17,900 nt of DNA from an uncultured Myxococcales bacterium. GTDB taxonomy: Bacteria > Myxococcota > UBA4151. The notes below the pieces were generated by a model. That model ran no database searches. It was not told the DNA's origin and saw only the letters and a program-made list of their open reading frames with translations. Each line of letters starts with the position of its first letter. The stretch's first letter is position 1. Positions 908 through 15,465 of this stretch are shown in pieces. The translations under genes were made by a program, and so were the position numbers. Location of the stretch: NCBI GenBank assembly GCA_964013405.1, contig CAXGWI010000067.1, positions 1-17,900 on the forward strand, read 5' to 3'.

Positions 908-1534
908 TTAGGCAGCCTGGGCCTGGGGATTGAGTTGACTGAAGAAGGCCGCAAACAGCTCCGTCTCAAGAGCCTGGAATTCGGCTCGACGCGATGTCGC
1001 CTCCGGGTCCAATGCTTCGATCCCTTCAATCATCTCTTCGAGGTGTTGATCCTCTTCTTCGATGATGCCCCTCAAGGTGACTGGGATTCGGTGGCGGCGG
1101 AGCACCGTGTCATAAATGGGATAAAGGCACTGAGCCCGCTCTTCGATGGCCAGTGTGACATAGAGATAGGCGAGGGCCCGTGCTTTGGCTTCGGGAACGG
1201 CCTCGAGGAGTCGCTCAAAGATGCCGTGGTCCAGGCTCTGGAAGTAATGGCGAGCTGCAAGGCCTTCGAGCAGTTCATGGTCTTCATAGCCGTCGCAGGT
1301 CCCGGGGTGAACTCGCTGCGCAGCCCGCTTGAAGAAGAGGGCATGGCGACTCTCTTCCGAGGCATGTCGCAGGATTTGCTCGGTGAGCCCATCCTTGCCC
1401 TGGCTTTTCCAGATTTTCCGAGCACCGGTCGCCTCCAGCATAGAGACCGTGTTCAGCCAGCGTGCGTGGCGCTCTGGTGAAGGCACGAGGCTTTCGAAGA
1501 ATGCTTCAAGTTCTTGGGGCTTGGGTTTCATCAT
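908..1534 (-). CDS. bioE: Ferritin-like di-iron protein; likely BioE-type pimeloyl-generating oxygenase
   Basis: Di-iron four-helix-bundle ligand set E34...E61xxH64...E131...E161xxH164. The N-terminal HARWLNTVSMLEATGARKI resembles, from recall, the ferritin-like proteins in Chlamydia and Elizabethkingia bio clusters. Starts 3 nt after the bioA stop in an operon lacking bioC/bioH. Confidence 0.72.
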   Translation of the reverse strand: MMKPKPQELEAFFESLVPSPERHARWLNTVSMLEATGARKIWKSQGKDGLTEQILRHASEESRHALFFKRAAQRVHPGTCDGYEDHELLEGLAARHYFQSLDHGIFERLLEAVPEAKARALAYLYVTLAIEERAQCLYPIYDTVLRRHRIPVTLRGIIEEEDQHLEEMIEGIEALDPEATSRRAEFQALETELFAAFFSQLNPQAQAA

Positions 1535-1537
1535 GGT

Positions 1538-2776
1538 CTATCCGTCCTGCACCACCTGGGCAGTCGCATCAAGGAGGATCCCCAAGGCATGGTTCAGGTC
1601 CTCGGTACCGACGCAGAAAGGCGGCATGAGGTACAAGACGTTACCTAGGGGACGAATATAGAGCCCTTTTTGAAGGGCCTTTTGGGTGACTCGCTTGCCA
1701 ACGGGGTCGAGGTAGCCACCTTCACCCCCGGCGATGTTAAATGCGAAGATCCCGCCACGGCAGCGCAACTGAGTGACCCGAGGTAACTCACTGAACGAGG
1801 GCATCGCTGCCCGGTAACAAGCCTCCATGCCCGCAACCCGGGTGAGGGTTTGTTCCTCTTCGAAGAGGCTCAGTCCAGCCAGGGCGGCGGCGCAGGCCAG
1901 CGGGTTGCCCGTGTAGCTGTGCCCATGGAGAAAGGCTTCCGATTTACTGGGGCCTAAGAATCGCTGGTAGACGCTTTCTCGAGCCACGGTGACCGAAAGG
2001 GGGAGTGTGCCGCCGGTGATCCCCTTCGATAAGCAGATGATGTCGGGAACGACCCCGGCTTGTTCGACAGCAAAGACACTGCCCGTGCGACCCCAGCCGG
2101 TCATCACTTCGTCCGCAATGAGCCAGGACCCGGCTCCGCGACAGGCGGCGGCCAGGCCCGCGAGATAGTCGGGCGAAGAGAAGACCATCCCGGCGGCCCC
2201 TTGGACCAGCGGTTCGATGATCGCTGCGGCGCATCGCTGTCCTTCCTTGGCGAAATAGGCTTCCGCCGCTTCAAGATCACCATAGGGAAGAATGTCGACA
2301 TCGAAGAGCAGGGGCCACCAAGGGCGATTAAAGACGCCCCGCTCCCCGACGCTCATGGCCCCAATCGTGTCGCCATGATAGGCGCCGGTGAAGGCAACGA
2401 TCCGGGTGCGTTGCCCATCGTCTCCGTTGCCTTGCATGGCCATCTTCAAGGCGACCTCAACGCTTGTTGAGCCGTTGTCGGAGTAGAAGACACGATTGAG
2501 GTCGCCGGGCAGCATGTCTGCGACCTGGTCTGCCAACTGCTTCGCGGGGCTGTGGGCGAAGTCGGCGAGAATGACCTGATCAAAACGCTTGGCTTGCGCC
2601 GCGATCGCAGCGGCGATTTTCGGGTGGGCATGACCGTGGTTGTTGACCCACCACGACGAGACGCCATCGAGGAGCTTACGCCCATCTGCCAGGTGATAGA
2701 AGGCGCCTTTCGCCTCTCGGACTTCTCCGAGGGGCTCGAAGCCTTCCATTTGTGTAAAGGGATGCCAAAGGCTCAT
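1538..2776 (-). CDS. bioA: Adenosylmethionine-8-amino-7-oxononanoate aminotransferase
   Basis: LWHPFTQM, DGVSSWW, SDNGSTSVEVALKMA, YHGDT, IADEVMTGWGRTG, CLSKGITGG (PLP Lys), HGHSYTGNP, IRPLGN; ATGA overlap with bioD. Confidence 0.97.
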   Translation of the reverse strand: MSLWHPFTQMEGFEPLGEVREAKGAFYHLADGRKLLDGVSSWWVNNHGHAHPKIAAAIAAQAKRFDQVILADFAHSPAKQLADQVADMLPGDLNRVFYSDNGSTSVEVALKMAMQGNGDDGQRTRIVAFTGAYHGDTIGAMSVGERGVFNRPWWPLLFDVDILPYGDLEAAEAYFAKEGQRCAAAIIEPLVQGAAGMVFSSPDYLAGLAAACRGAGSWLIADEVMTGWGRTGSVFAVEQAGVVPDIICLSKGITGGTLPLSVTVARESVYQRFLGPSKSEAFLHGHSYTGNPLACAAALAGLSLFEEEQTLTRVAGMEACYRAAMPSFSELPRVTQLRCRGGIFAFNIAGGEGGYLDPVGKRVTQKALQKGLYIRPLGNVLYLMPPFCVGTEDLNHALGILLDATAQVVQDG

Positions 2777-3402
2777 GGCTGGTTCTCCAGATCCCTCGCA
2801 AGTTGCATGGCAAGGGAATCAAAATCGGCTTCCACATCATCCCGCCAGTCGATGCGTGCTCGCACCGGAGTCCCGGTGTAGCGGGCGATATCTCGCTCAT
2901 TCTCGGCATGGGGAGGGCCCACCAAGATGTAGCCGAGGCAGGATAGACCATGGCTCTGCAATGCCTGGTGGGTGAGAAAGCTGTGGTTCAGGGTGCCTAG
3001 ACCCGTGCGCGCGACGACGAGCACGGGCAAGTCGAGGGCTTGCATAAGTTCATGCTGCCAACGGACCGGCGCCGCAGCGAAGGGGACCATGAGTCCACCG
3101 GCTCCCTCCACGACGAGCGGTTCGTCTGTGGGCAGTTTGAGTTGATCGATATCGACCCGTAGGTTTTCATCCTGGGCTGCAGCGTGGGGCGACGCTGGGC
3201 GGATGAGCCGATAGCCTTCCGGATACACGGTGCAGCCGGCCAGCCGACCGACCCGCTGGCTGTCTGTTTCTGTATCGAGGCCTGCTTGGACCGGCTTCCA
3301 ATAGGCAGCGCCTAGGGCTTTGCACAGAAGGGCAGAGATGACGGTCTTGCCCACATCCGTATCCGTACCCGTGACATAGAACTGAGCAGGGAGAGTCATC
3401 AC
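2773..3402 (-). CDS. bioD: Dethiobiotin synthetase
   Basis: VTGTDTDVGKT P-loop, YWKPVQAG, PASPH, VVEGAGG, LGTLNH. The start is GTG 3402 or ATG 3399, overlapping the bioF stop. Confidence 0.96.
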   Translation of the reverse strand: MMTLPAQFYVTGTDTDVGKTVISALLCKALGAAYWKPVQAGLDTETDSQRVGRLAGCTVYPEGYRLIRPASPHAAAQDENLRVDIDQLKLPTDEPLVVEGAGGLMVPFAAAPVRWQHELMQALDLPVLVVARTGLGTLNHSFLTHQALQSHGLSCLGYILVGPPHAENERDIARYTGTPVRARIDWRDDVEADFDSLAMQLARDLENQP

Positions 3403-4532
3403 AGTTGCTCCAAAGTATGAAGGAGGTCCGTCGCTAGGCGGTCGATTTGGATCTCGGTGAGGTGAGCGCCGGCGACCAGGCGTAGCCGCGCCGTGCCTTC
3501 TGGAACGGTTGGTGGGCGAATGGCGCGGACGTCGTAGCCTCGGGCCTGGAGGCCGTCTGCAACGGCCAGAGCCCGGGCGCTGCTGCCTAGGACGACGGGC
3601 ACGATGGCGCTGTCTCCCCTGACCGTCAGTCCTCCTTGCTGCAGTTGATCACGAAGCCGCTGGGCCAGGGCCAGGGGGCGAGCGCGTCGAGGGGCATCTG
3701 CCCGGATCGCAGCCATGGAGGCCTCCAGAGCCGGTGCGACCACCGGTAGTGGGCCCGTGGAGTAAATGAAGGGCCGAGCCCGGTTTACCAGGAGACGTCG
3801 TAGACTTTCGCTGCTGGCCACGAAGGCACCGGCTAGGCCCATCGCCTTGCCACAGGTGTGTAGCGTCGCTGTCACCTTGGACTGCAGGCCCAGTTCGGCC
3901 ACCCGCCCTTGACCCTCCGGGCCATAGAGGCCGGTGGCGTGGGCCTCGTCGACGATCAAGCCGGCCCCGTAGCGGGAAGCGATCTCAGCGAGGGCCTCAA
4001 GTGGGGCCAGGTCTCCGTCCATACTGTAGAGGGACTCAACCACGATCCAGTGGGGGCCTTTTTGCGCCCTGAGGGCTGCTTCCACTTGCTCGCAGTCTAG
4101 ATGGTCAACGATGCTGACTCGGGCTTTGCTGAGACGAATTCCATCGATCAGGCTGGCATGGTTGAGGGCGTCGGACACCACATGATCCCCAGCCTCGATG
4201 ACCGTGGCGAGAAGACCGAGATTGGCCTGATAGCCGGAGGTGAAATAAAGGCCGGCTTCTTGGCCCTGCCACTGGGCGAAGCGACACTCGACCGTCTCGA
4301 GTTCCCAACGCTCTCCGGTCAACAGGCGAGAGCCCGTCGCCCCCGTGTCCAGGCCCGCCTGGAGGCTCCGGATCATGGCCGAACGCAAGCGCTCATCTCG
4401 GGCGAGCCCGAGATAGTCGTTGCTCGAAACGTCAAGGCCTTCAGGGGCCTTCAAACGCCGGTACAGTTGCTTCTGTTGGAGCGTTTCGAGTCGAGCAGCG
4501 AAGCGAACTTCAGGCGGTGGCCAGCTGTGCAT
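3399..4532 (-). CDS. bioF: 8-amino-7-oxononanoate synthase
   Basis: SSNDYLGL, GSRLLTG, SGYQAN, DALNHASLIDG, ESLYSMDGD, VDEAH, TCGKAMG (PLP Lys), IRPPTVPEG. Confidence 0.96.
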   Translation of the reverse strand: MHSWPPPEVRFAARLETLQQKQLYRRLKAPEGLDVSSNDYLGLARDERLRSAMIRSLQAGLDTGATGSRLLTGERWELETVECRFAQWQGQEAGLYFTSGYQANLGLLATVIEAGDHVVSDALNHASLIDGIRLSKARVSIVDHLDCEQVEAALRAQKGPHWIVVESLYSMDGDLAPLEALAEIASRYGAGLIVDEAHATGLYGPEGQGRVAELGLQSKVTATLHTCGKAMGLAGAFVASSESLRRLLVNRARPFIYSTGPLPVVAPALEASMAAIRADAPRRARPLALAQRLRDQLQQGGLTVRGDSAIVPVVLGSSARALAVADGLQARGYDVRAIRPPTVPEGTARLRLVAGAHLTEIQIDRLATDLLHTLEQL

Positions 4533-5505
4533 CGTGCCGATGGGTCGGGCGAGCTTCGAGGGGCTCGAGCCCGAGCTTCTCCAACAGGGCCCGGTCCTTT
4601 TCCATTTCCGGATTGCCCGTGGTCAGCAATTTCTCGCCGTAGAAGATACTATTGGCTCCTAGTTGGAAGGCCATGGCTTGAGCCTCATCGCTCAGCCGGG
4701 TGCGGCCCGCAGCCAAGCGGATCATGCTGTCCGGCATTAAAACCCGGGCGACGGCCAGGGTGCGAAGGAAATCCCAGACACTCACGGTTTCTTCATCTTG
4801 AAGGGGCGTCCCTTCCACTTGGACCAAGCTGTTGATGGGGACGCTCTCGGGGTGAGGCTCCATGTTTGCGAGCACCTGAAGCATGCGGGCCCGGTCCCAG
4901 CTTTTCTCGCCCATGCCGATAATGCCGCCGGAACAGACTTGGATCCCAGCATTTCGGACATTCTCTAGCGTTTGGAGTCGGTCGGCAAAGCCGCGGGTTG
5001 AGATGATCTCCGCATAGTGTTCCGGCGAGGTGTCGATATTGTGATTGTAAGCGGTGAGGCCTGCCTCGGCCAAACGCTGCGCCTGTTTAGCATTGAGCAT
5101 GCCAAGGGTGCAGCAGACCTCAAGTCCCATTCCGCCCACATCCCTCACCATTTCCACCACCTCGTCGAAGTCCTTGTTGTCTCGAACTTCTCGCCAGGCG
5201 GCGCCCATGCAAAACCGAGTACTTCCTTGATCTTTCGCAAGCGTCGCTTGCTCCAGGACCACTTCTCGATCGATCAACCGTTCTGCGGCCAAGCCGGTAT
5301 TGTAACGAGCAGACTGGGGGCAGTAAGCGCAATCTTCCGGGCAGCCACCACTCTTAATATTGGACAAGGTGCACAGTTGGATTTTGCCAACGGGCTGGAA
5401 AGCCCGATGCGCTTCTTGGGCTCGAAAGCTTAGTTCGTGAAAAGGGAGGGCAAAGAGCGCCTCCACCTCTTCCACTCGCCAATCGTAACGAATCGTGGGT
5501 TCCAT
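4510..5505 (-). CDS. bioB: Biotin synthase (radical SAM)
   Basis: CPEDCAYCPQ radical-SAM motif, RFCMGAAWR, YNHNIDT, CSGGIIGMGE, ESVPIN, GANSIFYG. ATG at 5505 is preferred because GGAGG lies just upstream; the track start is 5517. Confidence 0.98.
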   Translation of the reverse strand: MEPTIRYDWRVEEVEALFALPFHELSFRAQEAHRAFQPVGKIQLCTLSNIKSGGCPEDCAYCPQSARYNTGLAAERLIDREVVLEQATLAKDQGSTRFCMGAAWREVRDNKDFDEVVEMVRDVGGMGLEVCCTLGMLNAKQAQRLAEAGLTAYNHNIDTSPEHYAEIISTRGFADRLQTLENVRNAGIQVCSGGIIGMGEKSWDRARMLQVLANMEPHPESVPINSLVQVEGTPLQDEETVSVWDFLRTLAVARVLMPDSMIRLAAGRTRLSDEAQAMAFQLGANSIFYGEKLLTTGNPEMEKDRALLEKLGLEPLEARPTHRHDAQLATA

Positions 5506-5557
5506 CGGTCCTCCCATGGCGTCGCCGCCGCCTACCGCATATTGCCTGCCAACACGC

Positions 5558-7904: not shown

Positions 7905-8661
7905 CCGGTTCATCGGGATCGAGATCGGTCATCGCTTGGTCCAGCAGGGCTTCCCGGGCCTCGGGTTCCAGACCGGGCGCCATCCAGTCGCTCATGGCCG
8001 GGATCCGCAACAAGGCCATGAATTCCCCTTGCGTACTTCGGTAGGTGAGTGGGGTCCAGCGCCCGGGCTCTAAGTCGCACATCGCTGCTGTTGCATCCAG
8101 TTGAGTCGGGTTCAGTTCGCGGATCGCACCGGGCAATTCCGCGTGACCTTCGGCAAGAACTCGGGTCACGGCTGCTTGAAGAGGGTGTCCTTCGACGCTG
8201 CCACCCCGGACGTAAGTTGCTGGCACTGTGAAGTGAAGGCTGCCCCCCGGCACCAGGAGCCGAGCCATGTCGGTCAATGGACTGCCGTGGAAATGCCAGA
8301 AAGCCGCGTTGCAGACGATGGCATGGAAAGGCGCTGCCCGTGAGGCACTTAAACGTTCCGCTGAGCGGACCTCGAAGGTCACTCGGGGATCATCGAGAAG
8401 AGTCCTGGCCAGCGAGACCATCGCCGCGGCCCGATCGACACAATGCAACTCTCCACGGGGGCCCAAACGCTGCAAAACAGCCTCGGCGGTGGCCCCGGTG
8501 CCACAAGCTAAGTCGAGAATCCGTATGTCGGGCCAGTCTGGATATGCCTCGAACAAAGTATCATTCAGTGCCCGATTCAAATGGGCATAGACCGGCCAGG
8601 ATCTCGTGAACTCCGCGTAGGTTTCAGCCGTCAGAAGGTCGTTCCAGGCATCCTCGTTCAC
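7843..8661 (-). CDS. Class I SAM-dependent methyltransferase
   Basis: ILDLACGTG motif I, CVDRAAAMV, SAERL, FHAIVCNAAF, RLLVPGG. The start is placed at GTG 8661, which overlaps the upstream TGA (GTGA) and has AGGA upstream. Confidence 0.88.
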   Translation of the reverse strand: MNEDAWNDLLTAETYAEFTRSWPVYAHLNRALNDTLFEAYPDWPDIRILDLACGTGATAEAVLQRLGPRGELHCVDRAAAMVSLARTLLDDPRVTFEVRSAERLSASRAAPFHAIVCNAAFWHFHGSPLTDMARLLVPGGSLHFTVPATYVRGGSVEGHPLQAAVTRVLAEGHAELPGAIRELNPTQLDATAAMCDLEPGRWTPLTYRSTQGEFMALLRIPAMSDWMAPGLEPEAREALLDQAMTDLDPDEPVTVDWFVVSFRRRAGAAPKA

Positions 8662-9323
8662 GGGCCATCCTGATGCAGGGGGCATACGGCTGGGAAACTG
8701 ATGCCTTTTTCTGCGAGGACGAACTGATTGCGTCGGAGGTCTTCGGTCACGACTTCCCACTGCCCTTTGCATGCCCAGTCACCCCGAAGGCGGGGGACGT
8801 TGCGACACCACTTACGGTAGCGTCTCGCCAGAATAAAGTTGTCATGGAATTGCCGGGCCATACCACAGACACAGCCTTGAAGTTCCATGCACGGCCCCTT
8901 CAGCGCGGCTGGGAGTTGAATCGTGCCTAACTCTTCCGGCTGAGCCTCTGAGTCTAGACTCGCCAGTCGGCTCTCCTCGGCCCGACGGTTCTCTTCTGCA
9001 AGTTTCTGTTGGTACCGGGCCTGGAGTTCGGCTTCTCGCTTTGTCTCGAGTTTCTCCGCAATCTCTTGGGCCAGGTGATCCACCTGTTCGACGGCGGCTT
9101 GTCGCTCCTTTTGTCGATGACCTCGTTCATCGGCCGAAGGCACGGCGGCTTCGATGAGCCAGAGTACGACCAAAGCGCCCCAAACCGCACCGATCGCGAG
9201 CCCCCGGCCACCTTGGAGCGGGCCGCCCGGCATCTCCCCATAGTGACCGGTTGGCATGGTGAGCCGGGAATAGAGGTAGAGAAGGATGACCAGCGCCGTG
9301 CTGATCATGACCAACCACTCCAT
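8658..9323 (-). CDS. Hypothetical membrane protein (two TM helices, charged coiled-coil-like stretch, six-Cys C-terminal domain)
   Basis: ATG 9323 follows GGAGGAG. Two hydrophobic N-terminal segments, an E/Q/K/R-rich helix, then Cys pattern C-x5-C-x-C...C...C...C. Translationally coupled to the methyltransferase. Confidence 0.7.
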   Translation of the reverse strand: MEWLVMISTALVILLYLYSRLTMPTGHYGEMPGGPLQGGRGLAIGAVWGALVVLWLIEAAVPSADERGHRQKERQAAVEQVDHLAQEIAEKLETKREAELQARYQQKLAEENRRAEESRLASLDSEAQPEELGTIQLPAALKGPCMELQGCVCGMARQFHDNFILARRYRKWCRNVPRLRGDWACKGQWEVVTEDLRRNQFVLAEKGISFPAVCPLHQDGP

Positions 9324-9361: not shown

Positions 9362-11533
9362 GTGGCAGCGGCCAGACCCGCTTCGAGGACCGAGCCCCTG
9401 AACCCAGAGTTACTCAGCGCAGTCTGGTCGATCACCATTCTCTGTGGTGCTGCTTGGCGGCTTCGCACACTGGTTCTGGCCTCGGGCGTGGGTCGTCGAT
9501 GGATTCCGTGGCTGTTTGCGTGCTGCCTCCTGACATTGGTTCGGATGAGCGTCCTGTTTTATCGTCACCTGTGGTCAAGCGAGCATGTGGATCCGTGGGT
9601 CATCCCGGTCGTGGTCCTGACCCTAAGTCTCTTTATCGTTTGTTGTTTTTCCATGTTGGTCGAATTCGTCGAGGCTGGCCCCCTGCCGACCTATCTCGTG
9701 TTTGTGGTGGGCGCCCTCCTCGCACCCCTGGCATCCATTCCATTGCTTCGATTCGATGCAGACTACGGTAGCCGCATTGCACCCATCGCAACCGTGCTCG
9801 CGATCCCCTTCTTGCTGGGGAGCGTGTATTTCGCCGTCTACCTGTATAAACGAACGGCATTCGAAGCACGGCGCCCGATGATCTGGGGCTGTACCATTGC
9901 CTGTTGGGCCGTGTGTGCAAGCGCTTGCTACGATGCATTTCTCGTCCAGCAAACCGGCGCCGCGGGGGTCTTCACCACGGGTTGGGTTCAGTCCATTGCC
10001 CTCATCGTCATCATGTTGATCGCGGAGGGCCTACTCACTCGAGAGTTTGTGCAGCGGGCCGACGAAAGGGAGCGGGCCGAGATCCCCGTTGAGGCTCAGT
10101 CGAGACTTTTTGCGACGGTGAGCCATGAACTTCGAACGCCCTTGAGTAGCATCATTGGGCTGCAGGAAGCCCTCTCTAATCGCCTCGCTCCGGCGGGCCA
10201 ACTGGCTCTGGTGAAAGGCCTGGGACAGGCAGCCCTCCGCTTGGCTCGACTGATCGACGGCGTCGTCGCGGTGGAGCGTTTTGCGCTGAACCGTCAACGT
10301 CTCGACGAAAAGCCCTTCACCCTTTCTCGGCTGTTTCATCAGGCGGAAGGAGATCTTCAGCAGCGCGTGAGTTGGTCCTTGTCCGGTCCGCTTGACCAAG
10401 TGGTCGTCGGTGATGACCGGCGGTTTCGCCAAGCCCTCGAGTTCTTGTGTTACGAGTTGAGCGCTTATGCAGGGGCGGAACCGGTTCAGGCCGAAGTGCG
10501 TGGGAAGCGGGTCTCTCAGGACGTGACTGAGGTCTCTTTTCGGCTCGTTTGTAGGTCGAGCAAGTCGCAGGCTGGGGAAAGGCCTCCCTTAGAACCGCTG
10601 AGTTCACTGTCGATTGCCCGCCGACTCTTCCGACTGCTGGGCGTCGAGCTGACGAGCGAAACAGATGCCTCAGGTGCACTGACCTGCCAAGCAACCTTTC
10701 AACTTCCGAGCGTTATCGGCCGAGTCGAACTCACGGAGACACCCCGGGAGCCAACGCGGGAAATTGGGACACGAGAAGCAAGAGTTCTCGTGGTGGATGA
10801 CAACGCGATGAACCGCAGAGTCCTGCGCCTCTTGATGGAGCAGACCGGCTGTGACCTCATCGAAGCAAGCAGCGGCGCAGAAGCGATCCGCCGGGCAAAG
10901 GAAGGTGAGTTCGAGTCGGTTCTCATCGATCTGCATATGCCGGGCATGACGGGACTGGATGTCGCTGCAGAGCTTCGGCGGCACTGGCAAGAGGTCGGTG
11001 CTGAGCAGGCCTGTCGCTTGGTGGCTTGGAGTGCTGACCTGCGGCCCGAAATGATCGCATCTGCCTTTGCCTCTGGCTTTGATCGGTTCTTACCAAAGCC
11101 ATACTCTCGAGAAGAATTGTTCCAGGCCCTGGAATTTCCTCTCGGGACACCGGACCAGGAGGATCTGGTGGAAGCGGTGGATGGGCGTCAAGCGAGCGAG
11201 TTCTTGCTCGCTTTGGTCGGTGGCGACGAAGCCTTGGCCGAGGAGCTCGTTGAGGAGTTTGAGTCCACTTGGCGGATGGCACACGAGCAACTCGTGAATG
11301 CCTACGAGCGCGCCGATTGGCAGGAGGTCCAGGCCCTGGCCCACCGGCAAAGAGGTGGTTGCTTAAGTCTCGGCCTCAACGAGCCAGCAGCGACGGCCGG
11401 CCGACTTCAGGTTGTGGCCGGGGAGGACCACAGGGAAGAGACCTACTCATTGTTGCTCCGCTTGCGAACCCAGTGTGAAGCTGCCGGTCGGCTACTCCGG
11501 CGTTCTCTGCAGCGTTCGGATCAGCAGCGATGA
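9362..11533 (+). CDS. Hybrid sensor histidine-kinase-like protein: 7TM, HisKA, degenerate HATPase, REC, Hpt
   Basis: About 7 hydrophobic segments; H-box ATVSHELRTPL (His codon 10124-10126); CA-like region lacking N/G1/F/G2 boxes; intact receiver (VVDD, LIDLHMPGMTG, S, KP); Hpt motif LAHRQRGG. The start is uncertain (GTG 9362, or CTG 9398 after GAGGA). Confidence 0.9.
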   Translation: MAAARPASRTEPLNPELLSAVWSITILCGAAWRLRTLVLASGVGRRWIPWLFACCLLTLVRMSVLFYRHLWSSEHVDPWVIPVVVLTLSLFIVCCFSMLVEFVEAGPLPTYLVFVVGALLAPLASIPLLRFDADYGSRIAPIATVLAIPFLLGSVYFAVYLYKRTAFEARRPMIWGCTIACWAVCASACYDAFLVQQTGAAGVFTTGWVQSIALIVIMLIAEGLLTREFVQRADERERAEIPVEAQSRLFATVSHELRTPLSSIIGLQEALSNRLAPAGQLALVKGLGQAALRLARLIDGVVAVERFALNRQRLDEKPFTLSRLFHQAEGDLQQRVSWSLSGPLDQVVVGDDRRFRQALEFLCYELSAYAGAEPVQAEVRGKRVSQDVTEVSFRLVCRSSKSQAGERPPLEPLSSLSIARRLFRLLGVELTSETDASGALTCQATFQLPSVIGRVELTETPREPTREIGTREARVLVVDDNAMNRRVLRLLMEQTGCDLIEASSGAEAIRRAKEGEFESVLIDLHMPGMTGLDVAAELRRHWQEVGAEQACRLVAWSADLRPEMIASAFASGFDRFLPKPYSREELFQALEFPLGTPDQEDLVEAVDGRQASEFLLALVGGDEALAEELVEEFESTWRMAHEQLVNAYERADWQEVQALAHRQRGGCLSLGLNEPAATAGRLQVVAGEDHREETYSLLLRLRTQCEAAGRLLRRSLQRSDQQR

Positions 11534-12984
11534 ATATCCTCGCGATCAACATTCTATGGTCCTTAGGACTCACCTCTGCCCTCTTTTGGCGAGTGAGTGC
11601 ATTGCTCGGGATCCTGCAATCGAAACAGCCCTGGGCCGCCTTCCTGCGCTGGACGCTGGCCCTCACCATCTTCAAGCAGTTGATGGCCCTCTTTTTCTAT
11701 ACGGCCGAAACAGCAGCGATCGCCCAAGTCTTCTATATCCTTCTTTTGGTCTCCACTGCCTTCTTCTTCCCCATCGCATTTGAGACCGTGCTTCGCTTTG
11801 TTGGTCGTCCGTCGGGCCGCTTAGCAAAAGTGGGTATCATCGGTGTGGTTCTGACGGTTGTAGGGGCCTGTTTCTGGGGCATCGAAGGGATGGTGTTGCG
11901 TCAGCCCAAAGGGGTGGATGCCTACATTTTCGATGCCGACCTGGCCCCGTGGGCTGGTGCCCTCTTGGCCGGATGGACGCTCTTTTATGGTGTGGTGACC
12001 TGGTTGGCTTTGCGTCCCATTGCTGCACCGGCAAACCGTCCCTTTCTTCCCGTGGTGTACGGCTACGGTATCAATCTGCTGATCATCATCCACGACGCTC
12101 AGGTGGCCTCTGGGGTCCTAGAGACGCCGTTTTTGAGCGGGTTTGGCAACGTGGTCCTCGCCGTCACTTTTGTCATCAGTGCGGAGCTCACGGTCACCCG
12201 GGAATTGCAACGGACCGCAGCATCCGATCGCCAGGCCCTGGCCGAACTAGACTCAAGGCGCCGCTTCCTCGATGGGGTGAGCAAAGAACTTCAGGGGCCC
12301 ATGGAAGAGATCGAAGATCTACGAGGCCGTCTCCAGGCCGAATCGCTGGACGAGGATTCGCGACGGCTCGTGGGTCTGATCAAGACGTCTTCCGACCTCC
12401 TTCATGGCACTTTGGAGCAGTTGGTGGATTTCGAGCGATTGAATCGAGGTGATTTCATTTTACGGGATGAACTCATCGAGTTGGAATCCCTTCTGAATGA
12501 TATCCTCCAGCAGGGTCGAGAGCTCACACTGGCCGAAGGGCTACAGTTTCGGGGGGACGTCGACGTTTCCGAGGGGCTCGTTGTCCGTGGAGACGCGCAG
12601 CGATTACGACAGGTGCTCACTTACCTCATCGCCAACGCAGTCAAGTTTACCCTTGAGGGGTCGGTGATGTTTCGTTGTCGAGCTTATCGTATGCCCGACG
12701 CATCCCAGATTACGCTGCGGTTTGAGATCGAGGATACGGGCGTTGGGATTGCAGCGAACGATCAGGCCCGTATCTTCACAGCCTTTGCCCAGGCTGATGA
12801 GGGCATCGAGCGGCGCTTCCAAGGGGTTGGCCTCGGTCTGGCACTGTGTGAAAAGCTTGTGGGTGAGATGGGGGGAGAAATCCAGTTGGACAGTCAGGTG
12901 GCCAAAGGAACTCGGATCCAAGTCGACATCAGGTTGGAGGAGGCGTTGACCCCGCAGTCTAACGATTCCTTAGGGCCTCGCTAG
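11530..12984 (+). CDS. Sensor histidine-kinase-like protein: 7TM, HisKA lacking the phospho-His, intact HATPase_c
   Basis: About 7 hydrophobic segments. The H-box position reads GVSKELQGPM (Lys codon 12283-12285). N box IANAVKFT, G1 EDTGVGI, F box IFTAFAQAD and G2 GVGLGLALC are all present. ATGA overlap with the upstream kinase. Confidence 0.9.
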   Translation: MNILAINILWSLGLTSALFWRVSALLGILQSKQPWAAFLRWTLALTIFKQLMALFFYTAETAAIAQVFYILLLVSTAFFFPIAFETVLRFVGRPSGRLAKVGIIGVVLTVVGACFWGIEGMVLRQPKGVDAYIFDADLAPWAGALLAGWTLFYGVVTWLALRPIAAPANRPFLPVVYGYGINLLIIIHDAQVASGVLETPFLSGFGNVVLAVTFVISAELTVTRELQRTAASDRQALAELDSRRRFLDGVSKELQGPMEEIEDLRGRLQAESLDEDSRRLVGLIKTSSDLLHGTLEQLVDFERLNRGDFILRDELIELESLLNDILQQGRELTLAEGLQFRGDVDVSEGLVVRGDAQRLRQVLTYLIANAVKFTLEGSVMFRCRAYRMPDASQITLRFEIEDTGVGIAANDQARIFTAFAQADEGIERRFQGVGLGLALCEKLVGEMGGEIQLDSQVAKGTRIQVDIRLEEALTPQSNDSLGPR

Positions 12985-13565
12985 TAAGCGTTTCCTCGGA
13001 CCAAGGCGAAGAACTGACCCAGGTCCTTGTCCCCCTTGCGGGCTTTACCCACACTGACGCCATCACAGACCACACGCATGTCGTCTTGCATCCCTGCGTA
13101 GACCAGTTTTGAGAGACCTGCTTCATTGGGTTTGCGCATGGGCCAGTCGGGCACGTCACCATCTGGGATGCTGCGATAGTCGATGAAGAGTTCTGCATCA
13201 TCGGCGGCCGGATGGACCAAGAAATAGCCGGGGCCTGTGATCCATTGGTTTTGCTGCTTGTTGTAGCCCCACAGTTCGTCTTCGCGATCGGTCGCACGGG
13301 TGAAGTGCTTCTCGAAGCAGCGGAAGACCGGCAGGGTGTTGATGCCCAAATGGGGGACTCTTGCGCCAGCTGGTAGGGACGTTGGCACGAAGTCGTCCAG
13401 CGTCATGGTTCGCTGCCCGTCCATCAGCCGATAGAGATCGCCAACGGCCTTTCGGCTCAGTGCCCGTACTTCATCGACACGGGCCTCGATGCTGAGCCCG
13501 GCGAGGTGCTCCGAGATCGCGTTGGCCGGGCTATTGGACTGGATCAGATCCGCGAGATGACTCAT
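12981..13565 (-). CDS. Hypothetical protein coupled to GMC oxidoreductase
   Basis: True start is probably ATG 13565 (MSHLADLIQ...), in ATGA overlap with the GMC stop. Globular composition with motif-like segments GINTLPVF-FEKHF, WGYN, TGPGYF, IDY, VY-GMQD-MR. Confidence 0.75.
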   Translation of the reverse strand: MSHLADLIQSNSPANAISEHLAGLSIEARVDEVRALSRKAVGDLYRLMDGQRTMTLDDFVPTSLPAGARVPHLGINTLPVFRCFEKHFTRATDREDELWGYNKQQNQWITGPGYFLVHPAADDAELFIDYRSIPDGDVPDWPMRKPNEAGLSKLVYAGMQDDMRVVCDGVSVGKARKGDKDLGQFFALVRGNAY

Positions 13566-15076
13566 AGGTTTCGCTCCATTAAACGGGTCGCAATTCGACG
13601 GGATAAGGCCATGATCGTGTGCTGGGGGTTGACCCCAAGAACCGAGGGGATGATGGAGGCATCGGCTACATAGAGCCCCTCGGTGCCATGGACTTTGCCG
13701 TCGAAGTCGCAAACGCTTTTGCCAGCTTCTGCCCCCATGGTGCATCCGCCGAAAAGATGAGTGAGAATGCTGGTCCATGCCCTCGGGTCTAGCGAGGCGT
13801 TCTCCAGCAAATGGATCTGGTCTGGTCCCAGGGCGTAGGGAAGACCGTGGACACCGGGCATGATGGCCTTCGCACCCACCGCAAAGAAGAGATGGGCGAG
13901 TTGGATCGAGCCCTGACGCAGGCGCAGCATATCCGCTTTGTTCATCGTGTAGAAAACTTGCGGTTTTCCGCCGATTCCAGGCCGAATGGTGCCGACGCTC
14001 TGGGCCCGAACCGCGGCGACCCAGAGGGCGAGGTTACGATAATTTTGTACCCGGTCCATCAAGGTCTTGCCCGCCCCCGCAAGGCGACCGGCGATCAACT
14101 CGAGGGGCATGTTGAGGGTCTCGAGTTTAAGGCCGGGGTCGTTGCGGAAGTGGGTGGAAGCCATACCCTGGGTCGCACCAACGGTCATGTCGACGGGATC
14201 ATCGAATGAGCCGAGTGTTGCCGTGCCCGGATGGGCCCGAAAGCCTTTGCCGAGGGCCGGCGTTTTGAGGCCGCTCCGCCAGAGGATCATCGGACTGTGG
14301 GTGACGGAAGCAGCGACGATCACTGCGCGCCGGGCCCGTACCTGAAAGCGACTTCCTTTTTTTCGGGTTTGCGGATGCACAAAGTGACCCTCGACCCCTT
14401 GAACCCGCCCCTGCGTGTGCATCAAACGCCGCACCGGTGCACAACTGAGCACCGTGCCCCCCCGCCGTCGCACCTCGGGAATCCAGGTGACATTGGTACT
14501 TTGCTTGCGGCCTGCGCGGCAGCCTTGCAGGCATTGGGCCTGACCGAGACAACCCTTCACACTACGTTCGATCACATGGCCTTCGATGCCTAAATTTTCG
14601 GCGGCTTGGAGTGCGAGGACGTTGCTTCGCCCCATGGATTCGGTGGGCACGGGGCAAACGGATAACTCCCGCTCGATCTGGTCCTGATAGGTCCAAATCG
14701 TTTCGGGCATGTCCGGGTCGTCCAGTCCGACTTGGTCTTTCCACAACTGGAAGATATCGCCCGGTGTCCGAACGACGATGGCCGAGTTGATCACCGTGGT
14801 GCCGCCCATCGTCCGGGCCTGCAGCACCGGGGAGAGCGCTCGCCCCATGGTCACCGATGACCCCCACTCATCGAAGAGATCCCGAAAGGCGCCGTAGAGG
14901 GTGTAGGGATAGTCCTCGGGGTCTCGCCAGGCCCCGGCCTCGACAACGGCCACCGATGCGCCGCCTCGGGCCAGGGTCACGGCAGCGCTACCACCCCCGG
15001 CGCCGCTGCCGACGACCACGTAGTCCACCTCCAACTCGAGGGTTTCACGGCCGGTCTGGTACGCGTAGTGGGTCAA
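13562..15076 (-). CDS. GMC-family FAD-dependent oxidoreductase
   Basis: VVVGSGAGGG Rossmann motif, VVEAG, GGTTVINS, Cys cluster CLGQAQCLQGCRAGRKQS, catalytic-type HLFGG, VADAS, GVNPQHTIMALS. TTG 15076 (after GGAGG, TTGA overlap) is preferred over GTG 15088. Confidence 0.93.
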   Translation of the reverse strand: MTHYAYQTGRETLELEVDYVVVGSGAGGGSAAVTLARGGASVAVVEAGAWRDPEDYPYTLYGAFRDLFDEWGSSVTMGRALSPVLQARTMGGTTVINSAIVVRTPGDIFQLWKDQVGLDDPDMPETIWTYQDQIERELSVCPVPTESMGRSNVLALQAAENLGIEGHVIERSVKGCLGQAQCLQGCRAGRKQSTNVTWIPEVRRRGGTVLSCAPVRRLMHTQGRVQGVEGHFVHPQTRKKGSRFQVRARRAVIVAASVTHSPMILWRSGLKTPALGKGFRAHPGTATLGSFDDPVDMTVGATQGMASTHFRNDPGLKLETLNMPLELIAGRLAGAGKTLMDRVQNYRNLALWVAAVRAQSVGTIRPGIGGKPQVFYTMNKADMLRLRQGSIQLAHLFFAVGAKAIMPGVHGLPYALGPDQIHLLENASLDPRAWTSILTHLFGGCTMGAEAGKSVCDFDGKVHGTEGLYVADASIIPSVLGVNPQHTIMALSRRIATRLMERNL

Positions 15077-15465
15077 TCTGTCCTCCACGTGCCTGGATCT
15101 TCACCATAGGGCTTGAGGCCCAGGGCCCTTCGAACCTGTGGGTCTGCGCCCCAGCACATGCCGGCTACCGTCTTGACCATCAGGAGCGCCTGCCGGAGCC
15201 CGTAAAGGCGGGAGCGACTCATTCTCATCACATGGGCATCGAGGAGGGATTTGGGCAGGAGGAAAGCGGGAAGCGGCAAGAAGACGGTGATGAGCGGTGA
15301 GATCACGAGGACCCAAGCGGACAGATAGAAACTCAACCGGAAGACCAGCGGCGATTCTTTTTTGAGCCGGCGCAAAAAGCCGGAGGGGTCACAGTCCTTG
15401 GCACCTGGAAGGCCATCGGCCGGTGGTAGAACGGCGCCGAGGCAAAATGCGAAGAGTGCGGTCAA
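15073..15465 (-). CDS. Small partner protein of the GMC oxidoreductase (gluconate 2-dehydrogenase subunit 3-like)
   Basis: About 130 aa, coupled directly upstream of the GMC gene. C-terminal RQALLMVKTVAGMCWGADPQVRRALG resembles small helical subunits that precede GMC enzymes; family assignment is tentative. Confidence 0.6.
   Translation of the reverse strand: MTALFAFCLGAVLPPADGLPGAKDCDPSGFLRRLKKESPLVFRLSFYLSAWVLVISPLITVFLPLPAFLLPKSLLDAHVMRMSRSRLYGLRQALLMVKTVAGMCWGADPQVRRALGLKPYGEDPGTWRTD

Follow-up and report, generated by a model that had tools for sequence, protein, structure and literature searches.

Can two sensor kinases that have each lost a different part of the catalytic machinery form one working enzyme? 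This question is raised by two adjacent genes, referred to here as A and B, in a 17,900-nucleotide stretch of DNA (the window; contig CAXGWI010000067.1 of GenBank assembly GCA_964013405.1) from an uncultured Myxococcales bacterium. The standard teaching is that sensor kinases are homodimers, and an annotation pipeline would record A and B as two defective kinases. The original prediction, made from the letters alone, had taken them for a split sensor kinase. Each of these sister kinases has lost the half that the other keeps, so each probably functions only when paired with the other, and it is probable that the ATP-binding domain of B phosphorylates His255 of A in trans within an A/B heterodimer. 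The mixed-pair principle has a precedent in FasB/FasC, a natural case backed by genetics that, with engineered complementations, indicates that such a dimer can function; what is new is a four-step phosphorelay kinase that has been split reciprocally, with intermediates preserved.

Complementary motif losses in A and B

The coordinates of both genes, their ATGA overlap and every motif quoted in the original prediction are present in the sequence (Table 1). In AlphaFold2 models, seven N-terminal helices precede the DHp (dimerization and histidine phosphotransfer) domain of each protein. A has Pfam matches to HisKA, Response_reg and Hpt and none to HATPase_c at E<=0.1, in agreement with its predicted make-up of an H-box histidine, a receiver and an Hpt beside a dead CA (catalytic and ATP-binding) domain. 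A CA-like fold persists in its model, with the lid as a low-confidence loop (residues 402-411). B, also as predicted, has an intact CA domain (HATPase_c, E 5.9e-23), a dead H-box, with HisKA below its cutoff (17.8 bits vs. 26.9), and neither receiver nor Hpt. The phospho-accepting histidine, receiver aspartate and Hpt histidine of a tripartite kinase are thus all found on A and not on B, the CA domain with N, G1, F and G2 boxes that such a kinase has on the same chain is absent from A, and only A plus B hold the full set: exactly one CA domain, on B, and one first histidine, one aspartate and one second histidine, on A. As judged by motifs, the CA domain and the acceptor histidine lie on different members of a pair of adjacent, co-oriented, paralogous membrane kinases.

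The membrane domain of B has no Pfam match to HisKA_7TM (PF16927), and its predicted structure matches those of HisKA_7TM-bearing Atlas clusters at a TM-score of about 0.8, both sides of the comparison being predicted models. NCBIfam scores lie far under every equivalog cut-off, and Foldseek searches with the A and B cores return only generic kinase cores (structures of GacS, RetS, ShkA, and HK853). The DHp of A has the same length as that of GacS. In GacS, autophosphorylation occurs in trans, and the H293A and G472A/G474A mutants complement in trans (PMC8498467); with GacS-length helices in both DHp domains here, trans chemistry appears feasible. Given its intact Thr+4, A is likely a phosphatase as well.

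Assembly error was considered as the cause of the motif losses and rejected, as marine metagenome contigs cover A-H255, the dead G1/G2 region of A, B-K252, and the B stop codon without indels. Contigs from three runs (X1-X3) show zero differences from the window and may derive from the source sample. The dead G1/G2 region of A is covered by other studies too (X4, X9), whereas K252 is covered in another study only close to a contig end (X8). The single indel across these contigs, at position 12745, lies in a depth-2 contig (X6). The GTG at 9362 is a plausible start for A; the orthologue in the second species of the window genus (G001) has ATG at codon 10, where the window genome has ACC. Scans for sigma-70 promoters and terminators gave nothing exceeding shuffles.

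Table 1. Features of the A/B gene pair, in positions of the window
Feature	Position	Strand	Remarks
Gene A	9362..11533	+	723 aa (amino acids); 7TM (seven-helix membrane domain) - DHp - dead CA fold - receiver - Hpt; putative phospho-acceptor half; start codon uncertain
A seven-helix membrane domain	9404..10036	+	Paralogous to the membrane domain of B
A DHp, intact H-box	10094..10285	+	H255 (10124-10126), E+1, T+4
A CA-like domain	10394..10711	+	Without N, G1, F, G2 boxes; lid shortened
A receiver	10784..11131	+	D523 (10928-10930); DD, S, K residues present
A Hpt domain	11243..11485	+	H661 (11342-11344); one of two Hpt matches in the genome
ATGA, A stop / B start overlap	11530..11533	+	Some overlap retained in 6/6 class genomes
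Gene B	11530..12984	+	484 aa; 7TM - His-less DHp - CA with ATP boxes; without receiver or Hpt; putative catalytic half
B seven-helix membrane domain	11536..12198	+	HisKA_7TM-like fold (predicted-structure match)
B DHp	12253..12447	+	Lys252 (12283-12285) replaces His, Gly replaces Thr+4; no gaps vs. GacS (7Z8N)
B CA domain	12589..12939	+	N369, DTGVG (G1, D402), FAQAD, GVGLGL (G2, G432) intact; Tyr365 (12622-12624) for the first N-box Asn

Conservation and graded loss among relatives

The Myxococcota class of the source comprises six genomes in two genera (G000-G005), and in all six A and B lie side by side, the stop codon of A overlapping the start codon of B, with B crossing a contig break in two of them. 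The synteny is conserved, with the pair lying between a methyltransferase/EpmA region and a class II aldolase, and a membrane-domain profile finds exactly one A and one B per genome and no third copy. The original prediction had named orthologues that stand apart or carry intact motifs as the sign of independent decay; with adjacency in 6/6 and the reciprocal loss conserved, the split-kinase reading is instead well supported by comparison. When 1.84 billion representatives were searched exhaustively with the profile, 12 proteins came back, each of A- or B-type by sequence: A and B themselves, six other long relatives, and four fragments excluded from the tables. Searches of a protein word index contributed only P0004 beyond three relatives already known; this protein, labelled as from a Myxococcales bacterium, is the only close database relative of the N-terminal 470 residues of A (54%). 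At the level of the phylum, the two membrane profiles matched 8 and 10 of 401 genomes, six being those of the class. The 395 genomes beyond the class contributed weak matches only, in 2 and 4 of them (best E 1.8e-7; 7 candidates scored per genome), and the one such match that was read fully is a single intact 7TM kinase-receiver.

In a tree of the membrane domain and kinase core (16 rows, excluding three controls and the G004 B, with the root placed on the A/B branch by assumption), A-types and B-types are split by one branch (100/97). At the level of sequence, A and B are shown to be sister paralogues of common origin. The branches leading to the window genus are long, identity across the two genera is 25-32%, and the B-types share about 25-30% overall. 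Under the assumed root, the H-box of B was inactivated at least twice, in a group with Lys, Ala, or Tyr (95/90) and in a His-Gln group that includes P0071 (100/99), to which the intact P0069 is sister (88/84).

Motifs were compared in seven A-types and ten B-types; the frameshifted A of G005, which has the same motifs, was left out. The seven A-types all lack the G2 box and all retain the His, Glu+1 and Thr+4 of the H-box, both the Asp and the Lys of the receiver, and the Hpt His. The remaining boxes are lost by degrees: P0075 retains N and G1, the sister-genus A proteins retain N and have DTGSRI as G1, and the window genus has no boxes. Conversely, the Mg-binding Asn, G1, F, and G2 are retained in 10/10 B-types, nine of which have a dead H-box (five with Gln for His, and four with Lys, Ala, Tyr, or Asp), and none has the Hpt His. 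In the five His-Gln proteins a receiver is present together with an Hpt remnant that lacks its His, P0070 and P0071 have a receiver and no Hpt, and the window-genus B has neither. The sister genus thus represents an earlier stage, with two full-length proteins and a B with its own receiver. This graded complementarity, conserved across relatives, argues for subfunctionalization and not independent decay.

Among background kinases, 103 of 104 fully covered cores are intact and no reciprocal pair occurs, with 8 partial hits set aside. This background consists of 86 loci, all of them generic kinases, 80 from metagenomes (query P0075; 80 of 609 confirmed, 1 of 64 parts) and 6 from genomes (query P0070); canonical motifs were what retrieved them, which biases the sample to intact kinases. 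In the source genome, 14 of 18 HisKA matches have both the His and a CA match. Between the two species of the window genus, the CA domain of A is its least conserved domain (44%; others 59-62%), while the CA and DHp domains of B share 66 and 56% identity; selection of this kind fits the proposed split. Within the sister genus, the dead CA domain of A shares 71-80%, the B receiver 74-79%, and the A receiver 52-66%.

Two conserved segments were seen in the sister-genus proteins. All five His-Gln B proteins end, after the Hpt remnant, in a near-invariant QSFExAAYPQGKTxEFP (L017:5797-5870, L018, L020, L027), possibly a docking peptide. In the A proteins (L017, L018, L019, L020, P0068), a conserved DRLSDxxADDPNLSLALA replaces the ATP lid, recalling the repurposed lid of RetS that regulates dimer choice.

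Proposed relay and competing explanations

In the proposed scheme, the phosphoryl group would pass from ATP on the CA domain of B to His255 of A in trans, then to the receiver and Hpt of A and on to some response regulator. The ancestor would have been a seven-helix, four-step sensor kinase that was duplicated. The G2 box and lid of A may have been lost first, as they are missing from all A-types; the histidine of B would then have had no working catalytic partner in a mixed dimer, and the H-box of B would have decayed repeatedly, to Gln in the sister genus and to Lys, Ala, Tyr, or Asp elsewhere. Loss of the Hpt His of B would have followed, and then deletion of its receiver and Hpt in the window genus. 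Loss of the A G2 box before decay of the B histidine is the simplest order. In CrdS and NtrB, the His-Gln exchange abolishes kinase but not phosphatase activity (PMC3510030). The first Asn of the N box pairs with the acidic residue at H+1, and its conservation drops where the acid is absent (PMC8292422). This Asn is kept in 8/10 B-types, including all five His-Gln proteins (P0070 has His and the window B Tyr), and its retention in B proteins lacking their own acid is as expected if it serves Glu+1 of A.

A number of observations weigh against a catalytic A/B pair. The N box of the window B reads YLIANAVKF, with Tyr365 at the first Asn, a position occupied by Asn in 102 of 104 background kinases and by His in 2; Tyr365 recurs in runs from three studies (X4, X6, X8) and may weaken catalysis by B. 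One B-type, P0069, has an intact H-box, its sequence ending inside the receiver. Frameshifts interrupt the A of G005 and the B of G004, in assemblies that are 59 and 85% complete. The class genomes are kin and not independent trials, and of the full-length relatives outside these genomes the four besides P0067/P0068 (P0069, P0070, P0071, and P0075) are known as proteins only, without genomic context. Strain differences, mostly from low-depth contigs and with 2 rows not included, comprise 14 synonymous and 19 non-synonymous changes in A; of the non-synonymous ones, 9 fall in linkers and 6 in the receiver. HExxT persists in RetS, which does not bind ATP, and a CA fold persists in DivL, which is not catalytic, so motif retention alone is no proof. 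The routing is also unusual: of the tripartite kinases that have been measured, ArcB works cis-trans-trans, EvgS all in cis, and BarA all in trans (PMC4734776). The original prediction of transfer from B-CA to A-His, A-REC (the receiver), and A-Hpt would be trans-cis-cis, which is not among these modes; its split-kinase part is well supported by comparison, its route less so.

ArcB and BarA share their DHp length, so DHp length cannot decide between cis and trans. Relatives in which B has a receiver may route the relay differently. An alternating route in the sister genus, from B-CA to A-His, B-REC, and A-Hpt, all in trans as in BarA, would explain why the B receiver is conserved while the H-box acid and Hpt His of B are lost. 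The window genus would then have deleted the B receiver and been rewired to trans-cis-cis as an obligately heteromeric seven-helix sensor, a history that we regard as conceivable though rather doubtful.

The original prediction took all existing split kinases to have other architectures, which overlooks FasB and FasC, adjacent membrane DHp-CA kinases. In Streptococcus pyogenes, FasB and FasC (with FasA) are proposed to form a heterodimer in which FasB supplies the catalytic domain and H246 of FasC is the acceptor; the evidence is genetic and two-hybrid (a heterodimer but no homodimer signal), with no in vitro kinase assay, and the membrane domain of one partner is dispensable (PMC12675982). 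Like A and B, these are two adjacent multi-pass membrane kinases with catalytic domain and histidine on different partners. Unlike B, FasB retains DHp histidines (H241 is dispensable and H284 was not tested in that paper), and FasC's kinase domain, though dispensable, is not described as motif-dead (PMC12675982), whereas in A/B both losses can be read from the sequence. FasBC is, moreover, a simple pair with an adjacent regulator, whereas A/B is tripartite with receiver and Hpt, has no regulator adjacent, and has intermediates in its relatives. The likeness is one of mode, known from descriptions without alignment, and no homology is claimed past the generic kinase core. In Rv0600c and Rv0601c, the ATP-binding and histidine parts of a class I kinase lie on adjacent genes, by fission into fragments and not by duplication. 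Together with TcrA, they form a Mycobacterium tuberculosis system of two sensor kinases and one regulator (PMC3544749). YiaZ/PP_2664, a hybrid kinase heterodimer that also homodimerizes (PMC12551699), was set aside as a parallel. In the literature covered, from which most subscription journals are absent, neither this A/B family nor any tripartite kinase split in nature was found to be reported.

For each half by itself a non-catalytic role is on record, so it is possible, though unlikely, that A and B bind as a regulatory complex without autokinase activity, with A as a RetS-like phosphatase (gated by its sensor) or phosphate sink and as an Hpt donor, fed by another hybrid kinase, and B as a DivL-like pseudokinase and allosteric tuner of A. 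The genome's hybrid kinases without Hpt could feed the Hpt of A, and the high conservation of the dead CA domain in sister-genus A proteins (71-80%) is as expected of a new non-catalytic role. A, like RetS, keeps HExxT, has lost the G-boxes, and has a receiver, and RetS chains rank 2 and 4-10 in a Foldseek search of A. RetS has a 7TMR-DISM sensor, two receivers, no Hpt, and a complete partner kinase, whereas A has no 7TMR-DISM Pfam match, one receiver with an Hpt, and an adjacent partner without the histidine. RetS of Pseudomonas aeruginosa, a membrane hybrid kinase with intact HExxT and a degenerate CA domain, acts by siphoning and phosphatase activity (PMC8498467, PMC5992135). RetS and GacS form a DHp heterodimer, and the GacS His and G2 mutants are an engineered twin of A/B (PMC8498467). 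However, GacS is complete, homodimeric, and inhibited by RetS, whereas B has no usable histidine and A carries an Hpt; there would be no autonomous kinase for A to inhibit. DivL of Caulobacter, a sensor module for DivK~P, shares with B a non-His residue at the H-box (K252 in B) and a CA fold, binds an ATP analogue weakly, and has an invariant role for its Tyr (PMC4211667). B-types, by contrast, have four replacements besides His-Gln together with invariant ATP boxes. The retention of N, G1, F, and G2 in all ten, at about 25-30% identity, would be unneeded for a non-catalytic role and argues against DivL-like weak ATP binding, although the atypical Tyr365 urges caution. The strict complementarity of the losses at three positions (CA, H-box, and Hpt) and the kinase-specific Glu+1 in 7/7 A proteins likewise favor a catalytic pair.

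A catalytic pair need not share a DHp bundle: B homodimers might phosphorylate A homodimers transiently, or an A2B2 complex might operate. CheA3 and CheA4 of Rhodobacter sphaeroides form such a bipartite kinase, with CA and acceptor His on separate proteins and neither autophosphorylating alone, and isolated HisKA and HATPase domains of EnvZ stay active (PMC3591291). A and B resemble this pair by motifs. CheA3/CheA4 are class II and have lost whole domains, whereas A/B belong to class I, are membrane kinases, and retain both folds, the decay being reciprocal and confined to the active sites. A higher-order oligomer is allowed by the FasBC authors (PMC12675982) and would ease the problem of cis and trans routing. 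We nevertheless consider an arrangement without a DHp heterodimer improbable, as both proteins have full-length DHp helices in register with GacS, the related DHp domains of RetS and GacS form a heterodimeric bundle (PMC8498467), and the overlapping stop and start codons in 6/6 genomes suit a 1:1 assembly. Less probable still is that A and B are redundant paralogues decaying independently, complementary by chance, in a dead or dying system. This would fit the frameshifts in 2/6 genomes, Tyr365 in the window B, and the lack of a response regulator gene next to the pair in any genome examined. Yet it is largely refuted by conservation at the sequence level, with open frames and complementary motifs kept over two genera at 25-32% identity; strain variation in B, likewise mostly from low-depth contigs, is 18 synonymous to 3 non-synonymous changes, and the retained elements are exactly one set of CA, His, Asp, and His. 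The frameshifts themselves lie in an A-run (G005 A, L020 at about 11000) and near a short repeat (G004 B, L027 at about 540), and tblastn finds the neighbors of the two broken genes unbroken.

The family preserves a graded series, from intact B through His-Gln to the His-less, truncated form and from A lacking G2 only to A with no boxes. It opens to test both the path from homodimer to obligate heteromer after duplication and the cis and trans steps of a His-Asp-His relay. The suggestion in the original prediction of an AND gate over two membrane sensors is unsupported; should the membrane domains of A and B sense separately, an obligate heterodimeric kinase core could be useful in synthetic sensors with two inputs.

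Output partners, other kinases and neighboring genes

Neither in the window nor in the five related loci L016-L020 does a response regulator adjoin the pair, so nothing corresponds to the same-operon regulator of FasBC. Each of the six genomes has two Hpt domains, one being that of A. The nearest regulator is a single-domain receiver about 8 kb from the pair in the sister-genus genomes G003 and G005. Its window-genome orthologue (G000:C15:23842-24231; L145 3843-4235) lies between glyA-like and ribD-like genes (names by sequence recognition), in a region syntenic with the downstream flank of the pair in G003. nrdR often lies between glyA and ribD. This receiver (L145, L152, L153, L154, L155) shares 95% identity between the two species of the window genus and 47% across genera, and is a weak candidate only for the cognate regulator.

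Other unusual kinases occur in these genomes. A pseudokinase/active pair that is not reciprocal is encoded at G000:C5:57618-62707 (L021) and again at G001:C55 (L022). Its pseudokinase, directly upstream, is a membrane hybrid kinase inactive at both sites, with Gln in place of His and without the N and G2 boxes, though its receiver remains; the active member is a fully intact REC-PAS-kinase-REC-Hpt protein. Comparable tandem frames are present in G002:C114, G003:C88, and G004:C108. At G000:C11:3006-4736 (minus strand; L149), a protein of GAF-PAS-PAS-HisKA layout has its H-box intact but lacks a CA domain, and would need a foreign CA domain or reverse phosphotransfer.

Convergent on B is a GMC oxidoreductase gene between two small unknown genes (window 12981-15465, minus strand), a region present in G001 and absent between B and the aldolase in the sister genus. 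A divergent conserved membrane protein with no Pfam match (8658-9323, minus strand) lies some 40 bases from the GTG of A, and its orthologue adjoins A upstream in G001 and G003. Further upstream (908-5517, minus strand) is a biotin synthesis cluster whose genes are recognized from their sequences as bioB, bioF, bioD, and bioA; next comes a gene for a ferritin-like protein (weak Pfam match).

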